Below, piece by piece: positions 18,638-43,570 of a stretch of DNA of 64,000 bases. How positions within the stretch are numbered: position 1 is the stretch's first letter; each line of letters opens with the position of its first letter. The stretch lies in assembly GCA_016778895.1 (NCBI GenBank), contig JADHOR010000005.1:33636-97635 (forward strand), in the 5' to 3' direction. The translations under genes were made by a program, and so were the position numbers. The notes under the pieces are model-generated. The model worked only from the letters and a program-made list of their open reading frames with translations, was not told the origin of the DNA and ran no database searches. This DNA comes from Candidatus Puniceispirillum sp. (GTDB taxonomy: Bacteria > Pseudomonadota > Alphaproteobacteria > Puniceispirillales > Puniceispirillaceae).

Positions 18638-19525
18638 TTGGCGAAAATTGGATTTGTGGGCCTGGGGCAAATGGGAAGTGCAATGTGCCCTCACCTTATA
18701 AAAAATGGTCACCAAGTTACGGTCTATGACGTTTCGCAAGAAGCTGTATCTGCCCTTGAGAAGCAAGGTGCAAAAGGTGCGAAATCTCCAAAAGAGGCCG
18801 CACAAGGCTGCGAGGCGGTTTTTGCTATTTTGCCGATTGGTGCAATAGTAGAGAAGGCTGTTCTCGGCCCAGATGGAATCGCGGATGGAATGTCCAATAA
18901 TGCAATATTTGTTGATATGAGCACGATTCTGCCAGACGAAACTCGTCAGATTGGCAAACGCCTTGCTGATCGGGGGTTCTCTATGGTTGATGCTCCTGTC
19001 GGTAGAACATCAGCGCACGCAGTCAATGGGAAATCAACTTTTATGGTTGGAGGCCAAAAACAAGATATTGATCGTGTGGTGCCATTCCTAGAATGCATGG
19101 GGGAGGCCATAACGTACTGTGGTGAACTAGGTTAAGGTTCTGTTGTAAAATTAGTGAATAACTATATTTCAGCTGTATCTAACCTAGTTACGGCAGAAGG
19201 GTTAGCGCTAGGCCTGAAGTCGGGCGTTAGTCAAGATGTAATGGTGGAAGTGATCTCTAAGACTCCGGCAGGCCTTGGGCACATCACCACGGCTTGGCCA
19301 GGAAAGGCATTATGTGATAATCCCTTGCCGGCTTTTATGTTAGATCTGGCGCGTAAGGACATTGGTCTCGCTCTGACAGCTGGAGCATCCTCGAAAGTGC
19401 CGTTATCCACAGGTTCTGTTGCCCGTGAGGTTTACAATATTGCAAGTGCAGCGGGCCGTGGGGAGGAGGATTGGACAACAGGAATTTACAGAACTGTAAA
19501 AAGCCTCTCAAAAATAACAGAATAG
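18638..19525 (+). pseudogene. HIBADH-family (beta-hydroxyacid dehydrogenase) gene interrupted by one in-frame TAA
   Basis: ORFs 18638-19135 and 19154-19525 are in the same frame. Reading through gives ...ITYCGELG*GSVVKLVNNYISAV, so the TAA at 19133-19135 sits inside the conserved G-x-G-xxx-K-L-x-N-N motif. The intact paralog at 28324 has GPVGCGLKAKLVNNY at that position. The N-terminus GFVGLGQMGSAM is the Rossmann motif. Confidence 0.75.
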
Positions 19526-28323: not shown

Positions 28324-29211
28324 GTGTTGGGAACTGTGGAACAAAAAATCCTTTTTATTGGGCTCGGAATTATGGGAGCTCCAATGGCAAAAAACATTAT
28401 TCGAGAGGGCTTTGACGTTGCTGTGTGCGACATTCAGCAGAATGTTGTCGACGGATTTAAGGGCGTCGCCTCGGCCGGATCGACTAATCCCTGTGAGGCG
28501 GCTGATCAACGTAATGTAATTATGATGATACTGCCAAACAGTGATATTGTTGATGCAGTGTTGTTTGATAAGGGTGGCGTTTTGGAAACCTGTGCACCAA
28601 ACAGCCTTATTGTGGATATGTCGACAGGCTCATACCCAAAATTGATGGAAACAGCAAAGCGTGTTGCCAACCGGGGTCACAGATTTGTTGATGCACCTGT
28701 TGGCCGGACACCTCGGGAGGCAATCACCGGCAACCTTCTCGTGATGGCGGGTGGAGAGGCAGATGACGTTGCAGCGCTTGATGGTGTTTTCAACGCCGTG
28801 GGCGATACAATTCTTCATGTTGGTCCAGTAGGTTGCGGCTTGAAAGCAAAACTTGTCAATAATTACATGGCTATGGTCAATAACGCATTGACTGGAGAAA
28901 CGCTTTCTCTAGCAAAGGCTGCGGGACTTGATGTAAGGGCTATGGCAAAATTGATGAGTTCAACGGCGGCTGGGCTTGGTCAACTCAATACAAATTATCC
29001 TAAAAAAGTTCTTGCAGGCGACCTGACGCCAGACTTTCCGATTTTTATGGCGGTTAAGGATTTGAATATGGCAATAGAGCTTGCAGAAATTGCAAACCAC
29101 AAAGTTCAATTTGGAAGAGTGGCTCGAGAAAAGTTCATCAGTGCAGAAAAAGCTGGGATGGGGGGCCTTGATCAAACAGCTATTCTTGAATATTTCATGG
29201 GCTCCCAGTGA
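28324..29211 (+). CDS. HIBADH-family NAD(P)-dependent beta-hydroxyacid dehydrogenase or aldehyde reductase (intact paralog)
   Basis: GLGIMGAPMA Rossmann motif, DAPVGRTP and GPVGCGLKAKLVNNY. The start is uncertain: GTG at 28324 or GTG at 28336. Confidence 0.85.
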   Translation: MLGTVEQKILFIGLGIMGAPMAKNIIREGFDVAVCDIQQNVVDGFKGVASAGSTNPCEAADQRNVIMMILPNSDIVDAVLFDKGGVLETCAPNSLIVDMSTGSYPKLMETAKRVANRGHRFVDAPVGRTPREAITGNLLVMAGGEADDVAALDGVFNAVGDTILHVGPVGCGLKAKLVNNYMAMVNNALTGETLSLAKAAGLDVRAMAKLMSSTAAGLGQLNTNYPKKVLAGDLTPDFPIFMAVKDLNMAIELAEIANHKVQFGRVAREKFISAEKAGMGGLDQTAILEYFMGSQ

Positions 29212-30087: not shown

Positions 30088-30990
30088 TTGGACTTATCGA
30101 TGGTGACTTTTCTTTCTTCAGTTGTAAAACGGCACTCAGCAATTAAAATGATGATTGCATCAGCAGCCATTGTGAGCACTGCTGGCCTTATTTTTCGCAG
30201 CCTAGACAATATTGATCCGTTTGGAGTTGTTTTTTTTCGAGGGCTCGCACTTTCATTTGTGATGTTAGTCGTCTTAACTGCTCTTTACAGGCAGCGAGTT
30301 TTTTCGGCAATCTGGAGCATCGGAAGGCAAGGTATACTTGGCGCCCTGTTTTTTACTGGAGCTCAGACCTTTTATGTTTTTGCTTTTTCAAACACTACAG
30401 TTGCCAATACAACATTTACCATTGCCCTTGCGCCCTTTATTACGGCCCTAATTGCATTTTTTGTGATAGGGGAGCGCATTGACAGAGCCACCCAGCTCGC
30501 GATGGCCACTGCGAGCATTGGTATCTTCTCTATTATAGTTAATGACGTTACTTCAGAGGGATTGGTGGGCGTAGTCTTTGCTTTGATGACAGCCTTTTGT
30601 TTTTCCTGCTTTGCTGTCACCCTTCGGCGAAATAGGCATGTAGAAATGTTGCCAGTGCTATTACTTACTGGGCTCTTTAGCATGGTCGTTGGATTGATCT
30701 TTAGTCAGTGGAGCGCTGTACCAGAAATACGCGACATAGCATTATGTTTTATTTGGGGCGGCGTCTTGCAAGGTTGTGGGCAAACCCTTCTAGTGCTGTC
30801 TACAAAAGTTTTAAAGGCTGCTGAAATCCCTCTTATTATGCTTCTTGAATTTGCGCTTGGACCAATATGGGTTTGGATCTTCTTTGATGAGTTCGTGAGT
30901 CACGGCACCCTTTTTGGCGGGGGGCTAATCTTTTTATCTGTATTTGGCTTGGCGATGTATGAAATTTTTAAACAGCGAACCAAGGGTTGA
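30088..30990 (+). CDS. EamA/DMT-family permease
   Basis: A polytopic membrane ORF of about 10 TM with a duplicated 5-TM EamA-like organisation. The likely true start is ATG 30148 (MMIASAAI...). Confidence 0.8.
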   Translation: MDLSMVTFLSSVVKRHSAIKMMIASAAIVSTAGLIFRSLDNIDPFGVVFFRGLALSFVMLVVLTALYRQRVFSAIWSIGRQGILGALFFTGAQTFYVFAFSNTTVANTTFTIALAPFITALIAFFVIGERIDRATQLAMATASIGIFSIIVNDVTSEGLVGVVFALMTAFCFSCFAVTLRRNRHVEMLPVLLLTGLFSMVVGLIFSQWSAVPEIRDIALCFIWGGVLQGCGQTLLVLSTKVLKAAEIPLIMLLEFALGPIWVWIFFDEFVSHGTLFGGGLIFLSVFGLAMYEIFKQRTKG

Positions 30991-31002
30991 TAAATTAGAA
31001 AA

Positions 31003-31749
31003 ATGGATTTTCTTGGGCTTGGTTATGAAAATTTATTAATTTGTCTGCTTAGCATAGTGGCTGGGGGGTTCATGCGGGGCTTTCTCGGTTTCGGCGCAGC
31101 ACTTGTAATTGTGCCAACGCTTAGCTTCACACTCCCGCCAGTTGTTGCTGTTGCTATCCTCGTTATAATTGAGATTCCAACGATACTTTACCTCGTGCCA
31201 ACTAGTATTCGTGATTCCAATTTAAAGACTGTTATACCGATGTTAATCGGTATTATTGTTGCCGTGCCCGTAGGTACTGCTGTTTTAGTTGAGGTCAATC
31301 CCGCTAAAATGAAACTGGTCATTTCTTTTACTCTACTAATGACCGTGGCTCTTCTCGCTTCGGGCTGGCGTATAAAGGGTGTTGTTGGCAAGGCTGTTAT
31401 GTCAGGTTCAGGGTTGGTAGGCGGATTTATACAAGGCGCTGCTGGAATGGGCGGCCCTCCACTAGTAACAGCGTTAATGTCATTACCGGATAATGCAAGC
31501 ACTACCCGCGGCAATATTGTCATTGCACTCAGTTCAATGTCATTGATTAACTTTGCTGCTTTACTTGTTTACGGTCAGTTCAGCGATGACGTTTTAACGT
31601 TTGGCATCATCAGTGCCCCCATATATGTGTTGTCAAATTATTTGGGCGCACAGTTTTTTCGTCAGCAGGGCAACGAACATTTTCGCCGTGCGGCACTCAT
31701 TGCGCTTGCGTTGATTGCCATTGTAACAATTTACACAAACTTATCATAG
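31003..31749 (+). CDS. TauE/SafE (DUF81) family anion permease, copy 1
   Basis: 248 aa, Gly-rich and polytopic (GFMRGFLGFGAALVIVP ... GFIQGAAGMGGPPLV), as is typical of DUF81. Confidence 0.8.
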   Translation: MDFLGLGYENLLICLLSIVAGGFMRGFLGFGAALVIVPTLSFTLPPVVAVAILVIIEIPTILYLVPTSIRDSNLKTVIPMLIGIIVAVPVGTAVLVEVNPAKMKLVISFTLLMTVALLASGWRIKGVVGKAVMSGSGLVGGFIQGAAGMGGPPLVTALMSLPDNASTTRGNIVIALSSMSLINFAALLVYGQFSDDVLTFGIISAPIYVLSNYLGAQFFRQQGNEHFRRAALIALALIAIVTIYTNLS

Positions 31750-37607: not shown

Positions 37608-39242
37608 TTAGCGTTGGTCAGCAATAATCATATCAGCCGCTTTTTCGGCAATCATGATTGTCGGCGCATTCGTATTGCCCGACACCAGCGTTGGCATGAT
37701 GGATGCGTCAACTACGCGTAACCCCGAAAGTCCGTAAACACGAAGCCTTGCATCAACGACATCCCCCGACTTTGGATCAGGCCCCATGCGGCAGGTTGAG
37801 ACGGGATGATACAAGGTCACGCCAGTTTCACGCGCATAGGCTAGCAGTGCATCATCGGTATCAAGGTCTTTGCCCGGGCGTATTTCTGCCTCGACGAGTG
37901 GCGACATATGATCACTTTCCATAATTACCCGCGCAATTTTCATTCCGGCAACGTGCACACGGCAATCTTCATCAGTGCTTAGATAATTCTGCCTGATCGC
38001 AGGTGCGGTCATCGGGTCGGATGATTTGATATGCACTGAGCCACGGCTTTCTGGCCGCAGCTGGCAAGGACCAAAAGTCATGCCTGGAAATTTATCAAAG
38101 ACACGTTTTGCCGGGTTAGCAAAGCTGGCATTAGCAATGTGATATTGGATGTCTGGACTAGTAAGACCATCACGCGATCGAACAAACCCACTAAGCGCAC
38201 CGGCTGGTAGGCTAAGAAGGCCGCGACGTGTTAAGCTATAGCGGATAATCTCGGCCGCTAGCCCAAGTCCATGTGCACGGTTGTTAAGCGAAATGTTTCG
38301 TCGCAAACGCCATGATAAGCGGGAGATATAATGATCGGCTAAATGACTGCCCACCCCCGGTAACTCATGGCAAACATTGATGCCATGGCGCGTGATATGG
38401 TCGGGCGCGCCAATTCCAGATAATTCGAGAATTTGCGGCGACTGAATTGTGCCTGCTGACAGGATAACTTCGCGTCCCACCTTCAAATTATGCGCTTTAC
38501 CATGACGGTTAAAATGAACCCCATCAACACGTCCTCCGCATAGGCTGATAGATGTAACATGCGCGTGCGTGATAACTCTAAGGTTAGGCCGCTTCCGCGC
38601 AGGTTGCAGGTAGGCTTTTTTGGCAGAAAAGCGGAGTCCGTTTTTCTGGGTCACCTGATAATAGCCAAACCCATCCTGACTAGCTCCATTATAGTCCTTG
38701 TTACGCGGATAACCTAGCTTTTCGGCTGCATCAATCAGCATATCAAGGGCTTCATAGCGACTGCGTACCGGGGCGACATTCAACGGCCCGCCAATGCCGT
38801 GGATTTTGCTGTCAAAATCCATATCACCATTTGCCAATGCCTCACAATGCTCTGCCTTGCGGAAATAAGGCAGCACATCATCATATGACCAGCCACGATT
38901 ACCGCGTTGGGCCCAGCCATCATAATCGGCTGACTGCCCCCGCACATAAAGCATTGCGTTAATAGCAGATGATCCACCAAGCACTTTACCGCGCGGGATT
39001 GCAATACGGCGGTTTCCGCTGCTTTCTTCAGGCTCTGTCTCAAACATCCAATTCATTGCCGGATTAACCATCGTTTTGATATAGCCTGCTGGGATATGAA
39101 TAAGTGGGTTACGGTCTTCCCCACCGGCCTCAAGAAGCACAACATGACAAGTCGGATCCTCGCTTAAACGTGCGGCCAGCACGCAGCCAGCGGACCCACC
39201 GCCAATGACTATATAGTCGGGTTGATAATGATCAAATGCCAT
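37608..39242 (-). CDS. GMC family FAD-dependent oxidoreductase, paralog 3
   Basis: [53 protein letters not shown]. It starts 12 nt after the TauE copy 2 stop on the same strand. Confidence 0.9.
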
Positions 39243-39254
39243 TTTAGTTGCCCT

Positions 39255-40055
39255 TCAAATAAGATTGTTCAGTCCTCGTATGATAAGCGTGAAACCACCG
39301 CAAGCCAGTGCAAAATGAACAAAATGACGAAAGGTTTTTTCAGAGATGCGTTGGCGTGTCAAATGCCCCGCTTGTTGTCCGGCGATAGTTGGAATAATCA
39401 TAGTAGCTGATAACAAGAGGCTATCACCAACAGGAAACCCAGCATGAGAAATACCTAGCCACAAAGCGATATAGCCGAGCGATAGAAACACGCCAAGCAA
39501 CATCGCAAGCTCGTCTTTGCTAACGCGCATCATCATAAATAACTGTACGCTGGGAAAAGAATACATGCTGGTAAAACTGCCCAGAATGCCTGATGTGATG
39601 CCTGCTGGGATAATTAGCCGTTTGAGGCTTTGGACTTTTATGGTTCGTTGCCGAAATTGGGGCAGTGGAAAGCTGGATAAGATAGAGTGAAGAGAAATAA
39701 GCAGTCCAATCAAAATGCCAAGTGAATGACTATCAACCGTTACCATAATGGGCGCCCCTATTAGCATTATTAGGGTAGCGGCGCCAACAAGTGGCCAAAA
39801 TTGTCTCAAAATGCGCCAATGCGCTCGATTGAGCCAGATTTGTTGAATGTTGGCCACAATAATTGGTAAGGCAAGAACAGCAACAGTTTCGGGGAGTGAC
39901 AGTGCAAATAGCATAATGGGTGTAGCAATCAGCGGTAACCCAAATCCTAATGCGCCCTTAACAAAACAGCCTAGAAGAACTGCAGTTAGCACGATTATGA
40001 AATCAGCTGAAATTAGAGTCTCGATAATCATCGTGTCATATCCTGAAATACTCAA
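39255..40055 (-). CDS. TauE/SafE (DUF81) family anion permease, copy 2
   Basis: 266 aa and polytopic (CFVKGALGFGLPLIATP...). It is the first gene of a two-gene unit with GMC paralog 3. Confidence 0.8.
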   Translation of the reverse strand: MSISGYDTMIIETLISADFIIVLTAVLLGCFVKGALGFGLPLIATPIMLFALSLPETVAVLALPIIVANIQQIWLNRAHWRILRQFWPLVGAATLIMLIGAPIMVTVDSHSLGILIGLLISLHSILSSFPLPQFRQRTIKVQSLKRLIIPAGITSGILGSFTSMYSFPSVQLFMMMRVSKDELAMLLGVFLSLGYIALWLGISHAGFPVGDSLLLSATMIIPTIAGQQAGHLTRQRISEKTFRHFVHFALACGGFTLIIRGLNNLI

Positions 40056-40425
40056 TGGCTGGGATTTTGTTCAGCTTGAAGACATGATGTTGAGCCAGTC
40101 TTGTCCCCAATTTCCAACAATCATGTCAGAGGATCAAGCCACCAATCGCATTTCAAGAGCAAGCAGATTAGACAATCTATGGATAGTCCAGGATTAAAGG
40201 GATTGTCGACTTAAAAAAATATGCGTACCGTCGTCAGGCTTTAGAAGCGTGGGTTGCGGCGTCAAAGGCCGAGCGTCTTTTGAGGCCAGCGGGCGCTCAT
40301 GTGAGCAGATTTAATAGGCAAGTGTAGGTTCAATCAAAGCCAGCAGGCCTAGGGTTTGTCTATGTTTAGAAATCTTCATTCCTGGGTGTTTATCCCCACA
40401 TCCTTCATTCAAGAATTGGGCTGTG

Positions 40426-41181
40426 ATGAGCTTTGATGTAATAATGCTCATCATCGCTGGTGCGCTTGCTGGTGGTTTTGCCAATGGCCTTGCTGGGTTT
40501 GGTACTGGCCTTTTTGCGCTCGGGTGGTGGCTAGCGGCAATGCCGCCATTAGATGCGGTTGTCACGGTTGTGATCATGTCGTTGGTTGGTGGTTTGCAGG
40601 GCTTGTACGCCGTTCGCAACGCCATTGATAAAGTCGAACAAATACGATTTTTAGCACCGGCATTGGTTGGTATTGTCATAGGTTATTTGCTTTTGGATGC
40701 GGTGAATGTCACGATGCTGAAACTCCTGGTAGCAAGCCTACTTATTTTGTTTGGTGGTTTTTTTACCTTTCGCAAAACCTTGCCAAAATTAACCAAACGT
40801 TATCTTGTGGCCGATATGCTTGTTGGGTTTATTGGTGGTCTCTTTGGTATGGTGGCTGGAATGTCCGGAGCGATTTTAACCATGGGATGCTCACTTTATG
40901 ACTGGTCAAAGGCGCGTCGACGCGCATTGGTACAGCCTTTCAATATGATCGTCTTGGGAACGGTGCTGGTTTTGATGGCCTGGCGCGGGTCAATCGGCCA
41001 GCACATCTGGCTGATTGTTGCGGTGGCCTTTCCATTTTCGATTATTGGCACGCAAACTGGTATTTTTATGTTTCGCTGGTTAAATGATCAGCAGTTTCAG
41101 CGGCTGCTGATATGGTTGATTCTTGCATCGGGTCTTGTTCTTGCAGGACGCGAATTAACTGCTATCATCGTTTCGAGGTAG
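40426..41181 (+). CDS. TauE/SafE (DUF81) family anion permease, copy 3
   Basis: About 251 aa and polytopic (GGFANGLAGFGTGLFALG...). It is divergent from copy 2. The start is ATG 40426 or GTG 40423. Confidence 0.8.
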   Translation: MSFDVIMLIIAGALAGGFANGLAGFGTGLFALGWWLAAMPPLDAVVTVVIMSLVGGLQGLYAVRNAIDKVEQIRFLAPALVGIVIGYLLLDAVNVTMLKLLVASLLILFGGFFTFRKTLPKLTKRYLVADMLVGFIGGLFGMVAGMSGAILTMGCSLYDWSKARRRALVQPFNMIVLGTVLVLMAWRGSIGQHIWLIVAVAFPFSIIGTQTGIFMFRWLNDQQFQRLLIWLILASGLVLAGRELTAIIVSR

Positions 41182-41233
41182 TTTATTAATTGCGTCATTC
41201 CAATGTTTAAAAATTAGTTTCAAGGGTGTTGTG

Positions 41234-43570
41234 ATGACTGAAATGCCGATGGGAAGCCGCGATGATGTTCTAGCTGGAGCTGGCACTGGTGGCACGACTA
41301 GCTCGCCAGTTGCATTTCCCATTCCGGCTGATGAGCTTGGTAATGTCTCGATTACCCCCGACGGTGCCTTTGAGGCGGGAACTTATCAAACATTTGTACT
41401 GACCTACAGGGCGGGTAAATTTGGCATTGATGACTCTGGATCAATGCGCGTTTGTTTTCGGTTTGCTAGTGATCAAACCCGGCCACAATTTGAAGATCCA
41501 GAGGGGCCAAACTACACGACTATTGAGGCGTCAAACAATGCCGTTCTTACGTATCATTATGATCCAAAGGGCAATGTGCGCCCGTGGGATAGAACGCTTT
41601 ATGTGAAAGTTGTACGCGGGTTCTTGCGTGAAGGTGATCAAATTACGATCACTTTTGGTGATCGGTCGGGTGGCTCGCCGGGGATGCGGTTGCAGACATT
41701 CTGTGAAGAGAGTTATGAGTTCCACGTATTGGTTGATCCGATTGCTACCTATTGTTATCAGCCGATGCCCGTTCAACCAGTGATTAAAATTATTCCAGGG
41801 AAGCCTGATCGTTATTTGGCGGTCGCACCAACCATCCGTGCAGTGAATGAGGTGTTTTCAATTAAATTCAAGGGTGAGGACAAATGGGGTAATCCATCAG
41901 ACCAGTGCGATATTGTTTTATATCCACGATCCAGTCATCCTATTAAAGGGCTGCCCGAGAGTGTTAGCCTGAAGCCAGGGTCTTTTTCCGGAGAAATTGC
42001 AGGCCTTTTTGTTGCAGAGGCAGCTGAACTATATGTAGATTTTCTGGATTGGGCAGGTACGGTAATGTGCCGGACAAACCCAATACGGATTGAAGATCAT
42101 CCATTATCCAGACATTTTTGGGGTGACCTTCATGGCCAGTCGGAAGAAACCATAGGCACTGGCAGCGCTGAGGCCTATTTCAGGTTTGCCCGTGATTATG
42201 CGTTTGTTGATGCCACAGGACATCAGGGTAATGATTTTCAGATTACTGGTGATTTCTGGGCTCAGCTCGACCACCTATGCGCTGCGTTTAACGAGGATGG
42301 AAAATTTGTTGCCATCCCGGGCTATGAATGGTCTGGCAATACTGGCCTTGGTGGTGACCGCAATATCTATTTCCCAACTGAAGGGCGAACCATTCGCCGG
42401 TCTTCGCACGCGCTGGTCAGCGATCATTCTGACATAGACACAGACTGTAATTCAGCTGGCGAGTTATTTGCCGCATTTGCTGAGTATGGTGAGGATGATG
42501 TTGTCGTTTACGCACACTGTGGTGGCCGTTATGCAGATATTGAACTGGCCCATGACGGACGGTTTGAAAAATCCATGGAAATTCACTCAAGTTGGGGTAG
42601 TTTTGAATGGCTGGTTCAAGATGCCTTTCGACTTGGATACCGCATTGGCATAGTTGCTAATTCGGATGGGCACAAGGGGCGGCCTGGCGCCAGTTATCCG
42701 GGTGCAGCATTGTTTGGTGCGGTTGGTGGGCTGACATGCTTTTTGACTGATAAATTAAGCCGTGGGGCGATTTTAGATGCGATCCGAAAACGTCACCATT
42801 ACGCGACTACTGGCGGTGAAAATGGCCGACCACTCATCACACTTGACGTAGATTTTCCACAAGGCGGCACAAAATTTCATGACGACCCCCGCCATGGACG
42901 TGACAAAGGTACAGCCGCAAATCAGGCAATCATGGGAGATATAGTTCATCTGCCGGCAGGCGGTGCATCACTCAAGGTTGATATACGAGCTAGTGTGGCA
43001 ATCGAACGTGTTGATATCTTTAATGGTCTAAACTTGATTGAAACCATTCGCCCTTATGCAAAGGAAGACCTTGGCAGTCGTATTCGGGTTATTTGGGAAG
43101 GTGCAGAATATCGTGGCCGTTTCCGGCAGGTAATCTGGGATGGATCAGCTTTTTTGTCCGAAAATGAAATTATTTCGGCGAGCCCAATTAATTTTTTTAA
43201 TAAAGATAAAACGCTGAACCAGCCATCACCAGTTGAATTGAATTGGCGCGCTTTGACTACGGGAAATATTGGTGGGTTTGATATGATGCTTGCCGATCCT
43301 TACAGAGGTACGCTTAAGATCGAAACACCATTGATCAAGGCTGGTGTGCCGCTGGAGGATATCGGTTTTGAGGATGAGGTTTTTGACAATAGCGGCGTGT
43401 TGCCACGCTACCTTAAGCTATTTCGGCTGCCGACAGTTAACCCGCACAAGACCTTACAGTTTGAGCGCGTGCTCTTTCTTGATGGTGATCGAGATAATCC
43501 AATCTTTGTTCGTGTAACTCTGGAAGATGGTACCTTGTGCTGGACAAGCCCAATCTACCTCTATCGCTAG
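41234..43570 (+). CDS. Large protein of unknown function with central PHP/DUF3604-like metal-ligand motifs
   Basis: About 778 aa. The central region has HFWGDLHGQS, ATGHQGNDF, GYEWSGNTGLGGDRNIYF, YAHCGGRY, MEIHSSWGSFEW and VANSDGHKGRPG, which resemble the PHP/DUF3604 metallo-hydrolase pattern. I do not recognise the roughly 290-aa N-terminal region or the roughly 250-aa C-terminal region. I see no signal peptide. Confidence 0.65.
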   Translation: MTEMPMGSRDDVLAGAGTGGTTSSPVAFPIPADELGNVSITPDGAFEAGTYQTFVLTYRAGKFGIDDSGSMRVCFRFASDQTRPQFEDPEGPNYTTIEASNNAVLTYHYDPKGNVRPWDRTLYVKVVRGFLREGDQITITFGDRSGGSPGMRLQTFCEESYEFHVLVDPIATYCYQPMPVQPVIKIIPGKPDRYLAVAPTIRAVNEVFSIKFKGEDKWGNPSDQCDIVLYPRSSHPIKGLPESVSLKPGSFSGEIAGLFVAEAAELYVDFLDWAGTVMCRTNPIRIEDHPLSRHFWGDLHGQSEETIGTGSAEAYFRFARDYAFVDATGHQGNDFQITGDFWAQLDHLCAAFNEDGKFVAIPGYEWSGNTGLGGDRNIYFPTEGRTIRRSSHALVSDHSDIDTDCNSAGELFAAFAEYGEDDVVVYAHCGGRYADIELAHDGRFEKSMEIHSSWGSFEWLVQDAFRLGYRIGIVANSDGHKGRPGASYPGAALFGAVGGLTCFLTDKLSRGAILDAIRKRHHYATTGGENGRPLITLDVDFPQGGTKFHDDPRHGRDKGTAANQAIMGDIVHLPAGGASLKVDIRASVAIERVDIFNGLNLIETIRPYAKEDLGSRIRVIWEGAEYRGRFRQVIWDGSAFLSENEIISASPINFFNKDKTLNQPSPVELNWRALTTGNIGGFDMMLADPYRGTLKIETPLIKAGVPLEDIGFEDEVFDNSGVLPRYLKLFRLPTVNPHKTLQFERVLFLDGDRDNPIFVRVTLEDGTLCWTSPIYLYR

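Follow-up and report, generated by a model that had tools for sequence, protein, structure and literature searches.

Why does a marine alphaproteobacterium encode a large DUF3604-like protein directly downstream of a TauE/SafE permease, and on which kind of compound might this protein act? We addressed these questions for a locus of Candidatus Puniceispirillum sp., a member of the SAR116 group (assembly GCA_016778895.1, contig JADHOR010000005.1, positions 33,636 to 97,635; this whole stretch of 64,000 nucleotides is referred to as the window). Two gene pairs, each headed by a permease gene, diverge there from a common intergenic region. According to its predicted structure, the large protein is a metalloenzyme whose centre, a barrel of the polymerase/histidinol-phosphatase (PHP) type, is wrapped by β-sandwich domains. 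Judging from the gene neighbourhoods of its homologs, which are suggestive and no proof, the substrate may be a small organic anion that is imported and then cleaved, perhaps a sulfonate or a sulfate ester. The features of the locus, in window positions, are:

37608-39242, minus strand: GMC-family flavin adenine dinucleotide (FAD) oxidoreductase (paralog 3), 544 amino acids (aa); GMC_oxred_N E 3.9e-52, GMC_oxred_C E 1.5e-39
39255-40055, minus strand: TauE/SafE (TSUP) permease copy 2; PF01925 with 68.1 bits (cut-off 32.6)
40056-40422, no strand: divergent intergenic region between TauE2 and TauE3, with a block at about 40197-40233 kept among SAR116 relatives
40423-41181, plus strand: TauE/SafE (TSUP) permease copy 3; PF01925 with 90.1 bits (cut-off 32.6)
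41231-43570, plus strand: three-domain protein of 778/779 aa with a predicted PHP-fold centre, a distant DUF3604 relative (from translation, Pfam, NCBIfam and an AlphaFold2 model)

Lacking a signal peptide, a membrane segment and a hydrophobic N-terminus, the large protein is predicted to be cytoplasmic. All six sequence motifs that a preliminary description of the window had listed as PHP/DUF3604-like metal-ligand motifs (GDLHGQS, HQGND, YEWSGN, HCGG, EIHSSWG and NSDGHKG) are present in its translation. The match to Pfam DUF3604 (PF12228) was weak and partial (28.8 bits, cut-off 20.4) and covered residues 311-388 and model positions 105-183, i.e. 79 of 591 positions. Precomputed DUF3604 matches on homologous proteins are marked as 'faint', and by its sequence the family appears to be no more than a distant relative of Pfam DUF3604. 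Neither the N-terminal 290 aa nor the C-terminal 249 aa gave a Pfam match even at E ≤ 10, and no relative in the PDB was detected by sequence at E ≤ 10, either with the single sequence or with a 77-sequence profile. An AlphaFold2 model calculated from a 77-sequence alignment had a mean predicted local distance difference test (pLDDT) score of 86.5 and a predicted template modelling (pTM) score of 0.87. Residues 1-24 are disordered in this model, and the remainder is divided into three regions, the two flanking ones consisting of strands only according to DSSP:

41339-42100, plus strand: N-terminal all-β region, residues ~37-290, two or three β-sandwich domains (DSSP of the AlphaFold2 model)
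42101-42820, plus strand: predicted PHP-fold α/β barrel, residues ~291-530 (Foldseek of the domain model)
42821-43567, plus strand: C-terminal all-β region, residues ~531-779 (DSSP of the AlphaFold2 model)

A Foldseek search of the PDB with the whole model returned only generic matches to immunoglobulin-like or GH2-type β-sandwiches, with template modelling (TM) scores below 0.2. The flanking regions, which had been described as belonging to no assignable family, therefore remain in that state. After this uninformative search, the central domain was remodelled alone (pLDDT 74). The barrel matched TM0559 (2anu), BVU_3505 (3e38) and PsfC (7rty) with probability 1.0 and TM scores of 0.54-0.64, so that AlphaFold2 and Foldseek together bear out the PHP fold proposed for the centre from its motifs.

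The residues of these motifs are placed in the model as His, Asp and Glu at the ends of strands and form a putative metal site, as the preliminary description had supposed. The putative ligands are D299, H301, possibly Q303, H331, E366, H429, H452, D479 and H481, which we take to correspond to the ligands of YcdX-type PHP proteins in the order HxH / H / E / H / H / DxH. The pattern deviates from the canonical one in that the first His is replaced by Asp (D299) and that the third ligand position is occupied by Gln303.

More than 7,500 homologs sharing sequence words with the large protein were found, nearly all of them 770-790 aa in length and named only 'hypothetical' or 'DUF3604 domain-containing'. 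In an exhaustive HMMER scan of 1.84 billion representative sequences, a threshold of E ≤ 1e-3 left 3,815 clusters (50% identity) and a stricter one of E ≤ 1e-30 left 645. Besides the clade of the window protein there is a second one of about 790 aa, which is 26-29% identical to it and occurs on Klebsiella plasmids and in Pseudomonas, Methylophilaceae, Bradyrhizobium, Azospirillum and Rhizobium. Six of the ligand positions (D299, H301, E366, H429, D479 and H481) are invariant across these clades, which are 27% identical. In the ~790-aa clade three others are exchanged relative to the window clade (Q303 to H, H331 to Y and H452 to G; alignment A1). The exchange of three positions next to six invariant ones suggests that the metal site was remodelled between the clades. 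Eight arginines are likewise invariant (R321, R390, R433, R471, R484, R521, R630 and R632) and would fit an anionic substrate; the last two of them lie together with the invariant W636 in the C-terminal region.

No enzyme of known function provided a name for the family. Membership in the CehA/McbA group was rejected, as NCBIfam NF038032 reached only 22.9 bits (cut-off 80) and covered only residues 463-607, and a tblastn search against plasmids gave no CehA/McbA-type record. Homology to Xsc, TauD, SuyAB or CuyA was absent, the searches with Pfam and NCBIfam models giving only the DUF3604 and CehA/McbA matches and none to the TPP_enzyme or TauD families. The literature found mentions DUF3604 only incidentally and describes no function for DUF3604 or for this protein family, and a search there for PHP-fold desulfonating enzymes or sulfatases, or for any connection between the PHP domain and the chemistry of sulfonates or sulfatases, gave none. 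The statement that the protein has no characterised function thus stands: its homologs carry only DUF3604 or hypothetical names, it has no relative in the PDB, and no close homolog is characterised.

We therefore turned to the genes that accompany the large protein, hereafter called the enzyme, in about 170 other bacteria overall. Set 1 comprised 80 genome loci of the window's own clade (enzyme identity 52-90%), and set 2 comprised 80 metagenome loci of a sister clade (enzyme identity 41-52%); individual loci are designated by L and a number. Genes were called with a caller trained on codon usage, and the neighbours were then clustered and annotated, many of them remaining without annotation. 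A locus counted as fully covered if the enzyme was flanked by three or more genes on both sides (n = 47 in the own clade, n = 30 in the sister clade).

The commoner theme in the family is an organic-anion uptake system, namely a tripartite tricarboxylate transporter (TTT), a tripartite ATP-independent periplasmic (TRAP) transporter, an SsuA-type ATP-binding cassette (ABC) transporter or TauE, often together with a HutC-type GntR/UTRA regulator. Frequently, the enzyme is the sole catabolic gene of such a module. In 17 of the 30 fully covered sister-clade loci, TctC-TctB-TctA genes are located at most four genes away from the enzyme, and the 47 fully covered own-clade loci contain TRAP (9), TauE (5), SsuA-type ABC (3) and TTT (2) systems. 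In the clade of ~27% identity the module consists of GntR/UTRA regulator, ABC ATPase, SsuA-family binding protein, permease and enzyme and was identical in all four genera compared (Klebsiella, Pseudomonas, Methylovorus and Bradyrhizobium); the best match of its binding protein was always the aliphatic-sulfonate SsuA family. This five-gene module is carried on conjugative IncF/IncHI1B plasmids of Klebsiella (L010, Klebsiella pneumoniae pFF1076_1) and is located beside genes of an integrative-conjugative element in a Pseudomonas chromosome (L091), which indicates that it is horizontally mobile. A conserved small accessory subunit encoded just upstream of the enzyme was not found: the 15 small upstream proteins are mutually unrelated except for a MarR-like regulator in L127-129.

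Genes of organosulfur metabolism recur beside the enzyme in a minority of loci, i.e. in 13 of the 47 own-clade (28%) and 5 of the 30 sister-clade (17%) fully covered ones. A bona fide Xsc gene immediately precedes the enzyme gene in L019 and L027 (929 and 877 bits, cut-off 676). L019 additionally has divergent genes for a SauS-like protein and a coenzyme A (CoA) ligase, and just after Xsc the start of a ComA-family gene overlaps the stop codon of the enzyme gene. L055 and L057 contain an operon of SsuA-like ABC transporter, TauD-like protein, enzyme and a translationally coupled sulfatase. L053 combines a TRAP transporter, an aldehyde dehydrogenase and an equivalog of sulfolactaldehyde reductase (375 bits, cut-off 348) with the enzyme, and in L076 the enzyme is accompanied by SulP and an equivalog of taurine dioxygenase (TauD). 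Sulfatase genes lie near the enzyme in L028, L061, L066, L127-129, L153, L156, L166 and L168. Genes of the ComA family (phosphosulfolactate synthase, PF02679) were found at most seven genes from the enzyme in at least seven lineages; we know of no pathway that explains a pairing of ComA and a PHP protein. ComA-family genes near the enzyme are located as follows:

L019, 12331-13137
L057, 4209-5129
L084, 5898-6713
L103, 6902-7717
L109, 17446-18351
L128, 2545-3372
L129, 3749-4582
L030, 1-570

The preliminary description had proposed a sulfonate- or sulfite-related activity for the enzyme. The organosulfur genes beside homologs in other lineages lend this idea support, and their restriction to minority contexts sets its limit.

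Since the enzyme lies beside an anion importer and a HutC-type GntR regulator and is often the only enzyme there, we read it as the cleaving member of an import-and-cleave module. In such a module, the uptake system would bring a small organic anion into the cytoplasm, where water activated by the metal of the PHP centre might attack an ester or amide-like bond of the anion. A TauE partner, where there is one, could either import the substrate or export released sulfite or sulfate. We put this reading as a whole forward tentatively, with almost as much trust in it as doubt. Sulfonated or sulfated C2-C4 compounds appear as the most likely class of substrates because Xsc, ComA-like and TauD-like proteins, sulfatases, sulfolactaldehyde reductase and SulP recur as neighbours, and this assignment is a possible one about which we are somewhat more doubtful than hopeful. 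A further-reaching version would make the family a new PHP-fold class of organosulfur-cleaving enzymes, either metal-dependent sulfatases/sulfohydrolases or enzymes desulfonating a C2-C4 sulfonate, for example sulfolactate or one of its conjugates. In the abundant marine SAR116 bacteria and many soil Proteobacteria they would stand in for SuyAB, Xsc or CuyA, with TauE/TSUP as dedicated importer or as sulfite/sulfate exporter; in this extended form the proposal is unlikely.

Several points weigh against import and cleavage of a sulfur compound. PHP chemistry is classically the hydrolysis of phosphoesters, and TTT and TRAP systems mostly carry carboxylates. PsfC is reportedly a case of non-hydrolytic, oxidative chemistry on the PHP fold. 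The only characterised multi-domain relatives, CehA and McbA, hydrolyse carbamates (PMC8292978). None of the neighbours is universal, and about half of the fully covered loci are without any recognised transporter or sulfur gene. The context is a non-sulfur one in L005 (TetR, acyl-CoA genes, SDH-like, fumarase and AcnX genes) and consists of a dipeptide-type ABC transporter and a lactonase in L007 (Chelativorans), and L054 contains an L-serine-dehydratase-like gene. On a plasmid of Sulfitobacter sp. S190 (L176, 103666-111835), genes for AcnX, an SDH-like complex and a two-subunit class I fumarase adjoin those for the TTT system and the enzyme. The density of sulfur markers drops from 18 of 286 neighbours (6.3%) at positions ±1-2 to 5 of 296 (1.7%) at ±6 or beyond (Fisher p = 0.005), which is only suggestive because the markers were chosen after the neighbourhoods had been viewed, making the test partly circular, and because a genome-wide background was not included.

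An alternative is that the enzyme hydrolyses an organic anion without sulfur, for example a carboxylic-acid derivative (amide, ester, lactam or carbamate). TauE3 would then be a general anion permease, and the sulfur genes would reflect how common such genes are in marine and soil Proteobacteria. The dominance of TTT and TRAP among the importers, the cleavage of carbamate esters by CehA/McbA proteins of similar size, the contexts of L005, L007 and L054 and the low share of fully covered loci with a sulfur marker all argue for this view. However, genes that are rare recur tightly and are sometimes translationally coupled in independent lineages (ComA-like in at least seven, Xsc in two to three, and the sulfolactaldehyde reductase equivalog), and the binding proteins of the ~27%-identity clade always match the SsuA family best. 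We consider a substrate without sulfur rather unlikely, and it is the alternative that survives best. In three sister-clade loci, L145 (7217-8467), L161 and L172, a gene for an aconitase-X-type dehydratase lies directly upstream of the enzyme gene, and such a gene lies beside ComA in L084.

A TauE gene immediately upstream and on the same strand was found only in SAR116, where this arrangement is fixed. Outside SAR116, TauE is located at most five genes from the enzyme in L028, L041, L054, L065, L075 and L080, which gives a total of about 7 of about 70 non-redundant lineages of the own clade, whereas it was near the enzyme in none of the 80 sister-clade loci. Preferential pairing with DUF81/TauE genes is thus not a property of the family. 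SAR116 genomes contain 9-10 tauE genes each (bioRxiv 10.1101/2024.12.10.627767; the metagenome-assembled genome AK_MB383_1 of that study is our L032). A single inherited adjacency of TauE is therefore weak evidence, which is a further point against the import-and-cleave reading. The TauE3 subtype (cluster c4, 29-40% identity) is present near the enzyme in L041, L054, L065, L080 and L028, and the TauE2 subtype (cluster c9, 28-30% identity) lies divergently beside the enzyme gene in L075 and L080.

These data also bear on the possibility that TauE and enzyme are adjacent in SAR116 by an accident of gene order peculiar to this lineage and without functional coupling, or that the enzyme is non-hydrolytic, with a PsfC-like oxidative activity and partner genes elsewhere. 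An accident would agree with the restriction of the immediate same-strand neighbourhood to SAR116, with the many tauE copies per SAR116 genome and with the absence of TauE2 from the SAR116 locus L044; for a PsfC-like activity speaks that PsfC is among the top structural matches. On the other hand, the two TauE subtypes recur in six other lineages, both of them together in L080, where the enzyme is only 53% identical. Moreover, other anion transporters occupy the slot immediately upstream of the enzyme in other lineages, which suggests functional replacement rather than accident, and this alternative appears quite improbable. Within the window, no two of the three TauE copies share as much as 25% identity, indicating that these paralogs are of old rather than recent origin and may differ in substrate. 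At 30088-31749 (plus strand), TauE copy 1 is located 12 nt after a gene for an EamA-family transporter and before TRAP genes (DctPQM).

A role as phosphoesterase replacing ComB, i.e. as a non-orthologous 2-phosphosulfolactate phosphatase that together with a ComA-like synthase would convert phosphoenolpyruvate and sulfite to sulfolactate, either to detoxify sulfite or to make sulfolactate, the product leaving through TauE, could account for the ComA-family genes adjoining or near the enzyme in at least seven lineages (translationally coupled and beside the sulfite-producing Xsc in L019) and for the annotation of the nearest structural matches as PHP metal-dependent phosphoesterases, but it is very improbable, as ComA-like genes are found at only about 5% of the loci, the window contains none, and the typical module of importer, regulator and lone enzyme would make no sense for a phosphorylated intracellular intermediate.

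All four open reading frames (ORFs) of the preliminary description were found, with gaps of 12 nt between TauE copy 2 and the GMC gene downstream of it on the minus strand and of 49 nt (given there as about 50) between TauE copy 3 and the large ORF on the plus strand. They are real genes rather than chance ORFs, as they have thousands of full-length homologs and as SAR116 relatives of 81-90% identity preserve the order of all four. The PF01925 match is near full-length in TauE copies 2 and 3 (model positions 2-236 of 237). Based on the lengths of homologs, both permease genes are probably shorter than the longest ORFs, with starts at ATG 40031 for TauE2 (258 aa) and at ATG 40426 for TauE3 (251 aa). 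The large ORF probably starts at ATG 41234 (778 aa), as suggested by homolog lengths and by a Shine-Dalgarno-like GGGTG motif upstream of this codon. The divergent intergenic region comprises 367 bp with the longest-ORF starts and about 394 bp with the homolog-based starts.

The closest genome loci belong to SAR116 / Candidatus Puniceispirillum, with an enzyme identity of 77-90%. They share a syntenic block of genes for RraA-like protein, cupin, ZnuA, GMC (minus), TauE2 (minus), TauE3 (plus), enzyme (plus), acyltransferase (minus), 2-hydroxyacid dehydrogenase (minus), AbrB-type membrane protein (minus) and GntR/FCD regulator (minus); the TauE2-GMC unit is thus also kept in SAR116 relatives. 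The 49-nt gap, the absence of a predicted terminator between TauE3 and the enzyme gene and the synteny in SAR116 suggest that these two genes are probably co-transcribed in this SAR116 genome, in accordance with the two-gene unit proposed before. No Rfam match to a riboswitch or other RNA was obtained in the region, and the divergent intergenic region contains no convincing sigma-70 consensus, promoter and terminator prediction being uninformative there. A block at about 40197-40233 (aaagggattgtcga-cttaaaaaaatatgcgta) is common to the window, L001, L011 and L032 and partly to L012 (the alignment also included L071) and could be a promoter or operator.

With respect to the other genes of the window, the GMC paralog 3 can by its sequence be assigned to the GMC family only. 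Its identification as BetA was rejected (TIGR01810, 495 bits, cut-off 732), and its best NCBIfam match, the choline dehydrogenase subfamily PRK02106, stayed below the cut-off as well (574.6 bits, cut-off 605). The description of the window as hpsNOP-like proved weak: a protein related to 3-hydroxyisobutyrate dehydrogenase (HIBADH; 28324-29211) reached 250 bits against a sulfolactaldehyde-reductase cut-off of 348, and a scan of 36 proteins encoded from 18.6 to 51 kb revealed none of the HpsN type. An Xsc-like protein was not found in the window, SuyAB and CuyA not having been specifically searched for in its outer parts. Another HIBADH-like gene (18638-19525, plus strand) is split by an in-frame TAA at 19133-19135 within the conserved motif GELG*GSVVKLVNN, its NAD_binding_2 and NAD_binding_11 halves forming two ORFs; it is presumably a pseudogene or the result of a sequencing error. 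The region from 18.6 to 35 kb contains three GMC genes, a Baeyer-Villiger/flavin-containing monooxygenase (BVMO/FMO), a short-chain dehydrogenase/reductase (SDR), an enzyme of the mandelate racemase/muconate-lactonizing enzyme (MR/MLE) type, EamA, TauE copy 1 and TRAP DctPQM. It is absent from the 90%-identical relative L001, in which pheT is followed by a gene for a 607-aa protein and then by the RraA-like gene, and is a variable catabolic island. The TauE-enzyme locus is located in a block of low GC (guanine plus cytosine) content at about 18000-46000 (0.43-0.485 compared to 0.50-0.56 in the flanks).

The enzyme represents a large uncharacterised family with hundreds of 50%-identity clusters and thousands of homologs, sampled from Alpha-, Beta- and Gammaproteobacteria including the abundant marine SAR116 bacteria and Klebsiella plasmids. 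Usually, the genes for an importer and a regulator of its own lie next to that for the enzyme, so that ligand screening of the accompanying binding proteins (TctC, DctP and SsuA-like) offers a route to the substrate. If this substrate is a sulfonate or a sulfate ester, the family would be a new enzyme class in marine organosulfur cycling, and members of the poorly understood TauE/TSUP permeases would obtain a concrete physiological role. If it is another compound, a natural function would be defined for the architecture from which the carbamate-pesticide hydrolases CehA and McbA may derive.

In comparison with known systems, the large protein shares with the PHP phosphoesterases (TM0559/2anu, BVU_3505/3e38 and YcdX-type proteins) and with PsfC (7rty) the distorted (β/α)7 barrel, with His, Asp and Glu located where its strands end. 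It differs from them by an identity of only 13-15%, by D299 in place of the first His and Q303 at the third ligand position, and by the β-sandwich domains of about 290 and 250 aa that flank its barrel. With DUF3604 (PF12228) it has the GDLH...ND...E motif region in common, and the score is above the gathering threshold, whereas only 79 of the 591 model positions are matched and the terminal domains are not covered. CehA and McbA, with about 770-800 aa, are of similar size. Like these hydrolases, the large protein carries a PHP-like domain in the middle, and it matches NF038032 weakly. Their catalytic histidines, His313 and His315 in CehA and His467, His477 and His504 in McbA (PMC8292978), occupy positions comparable to those of the large protein. 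CehA and McbA are, however, xenobiotic hydrolases borne on transposons and not chromosomal genes coupled to transporters, and the large protein scores below the NF038032 cut-off. Genomic company is what it shares with the systems for sulfonates and sulfate esters (Xsc, SuyAB, CuyA, TauD/AtsK, type I sulfatases and TauE/SafE exporters), although it is homologous to none of the enzymes among them. Its modules recall taurine and sulfolactate clusters in their logic of a transporter, a presumed cleaving enzyme and an anion exporter.

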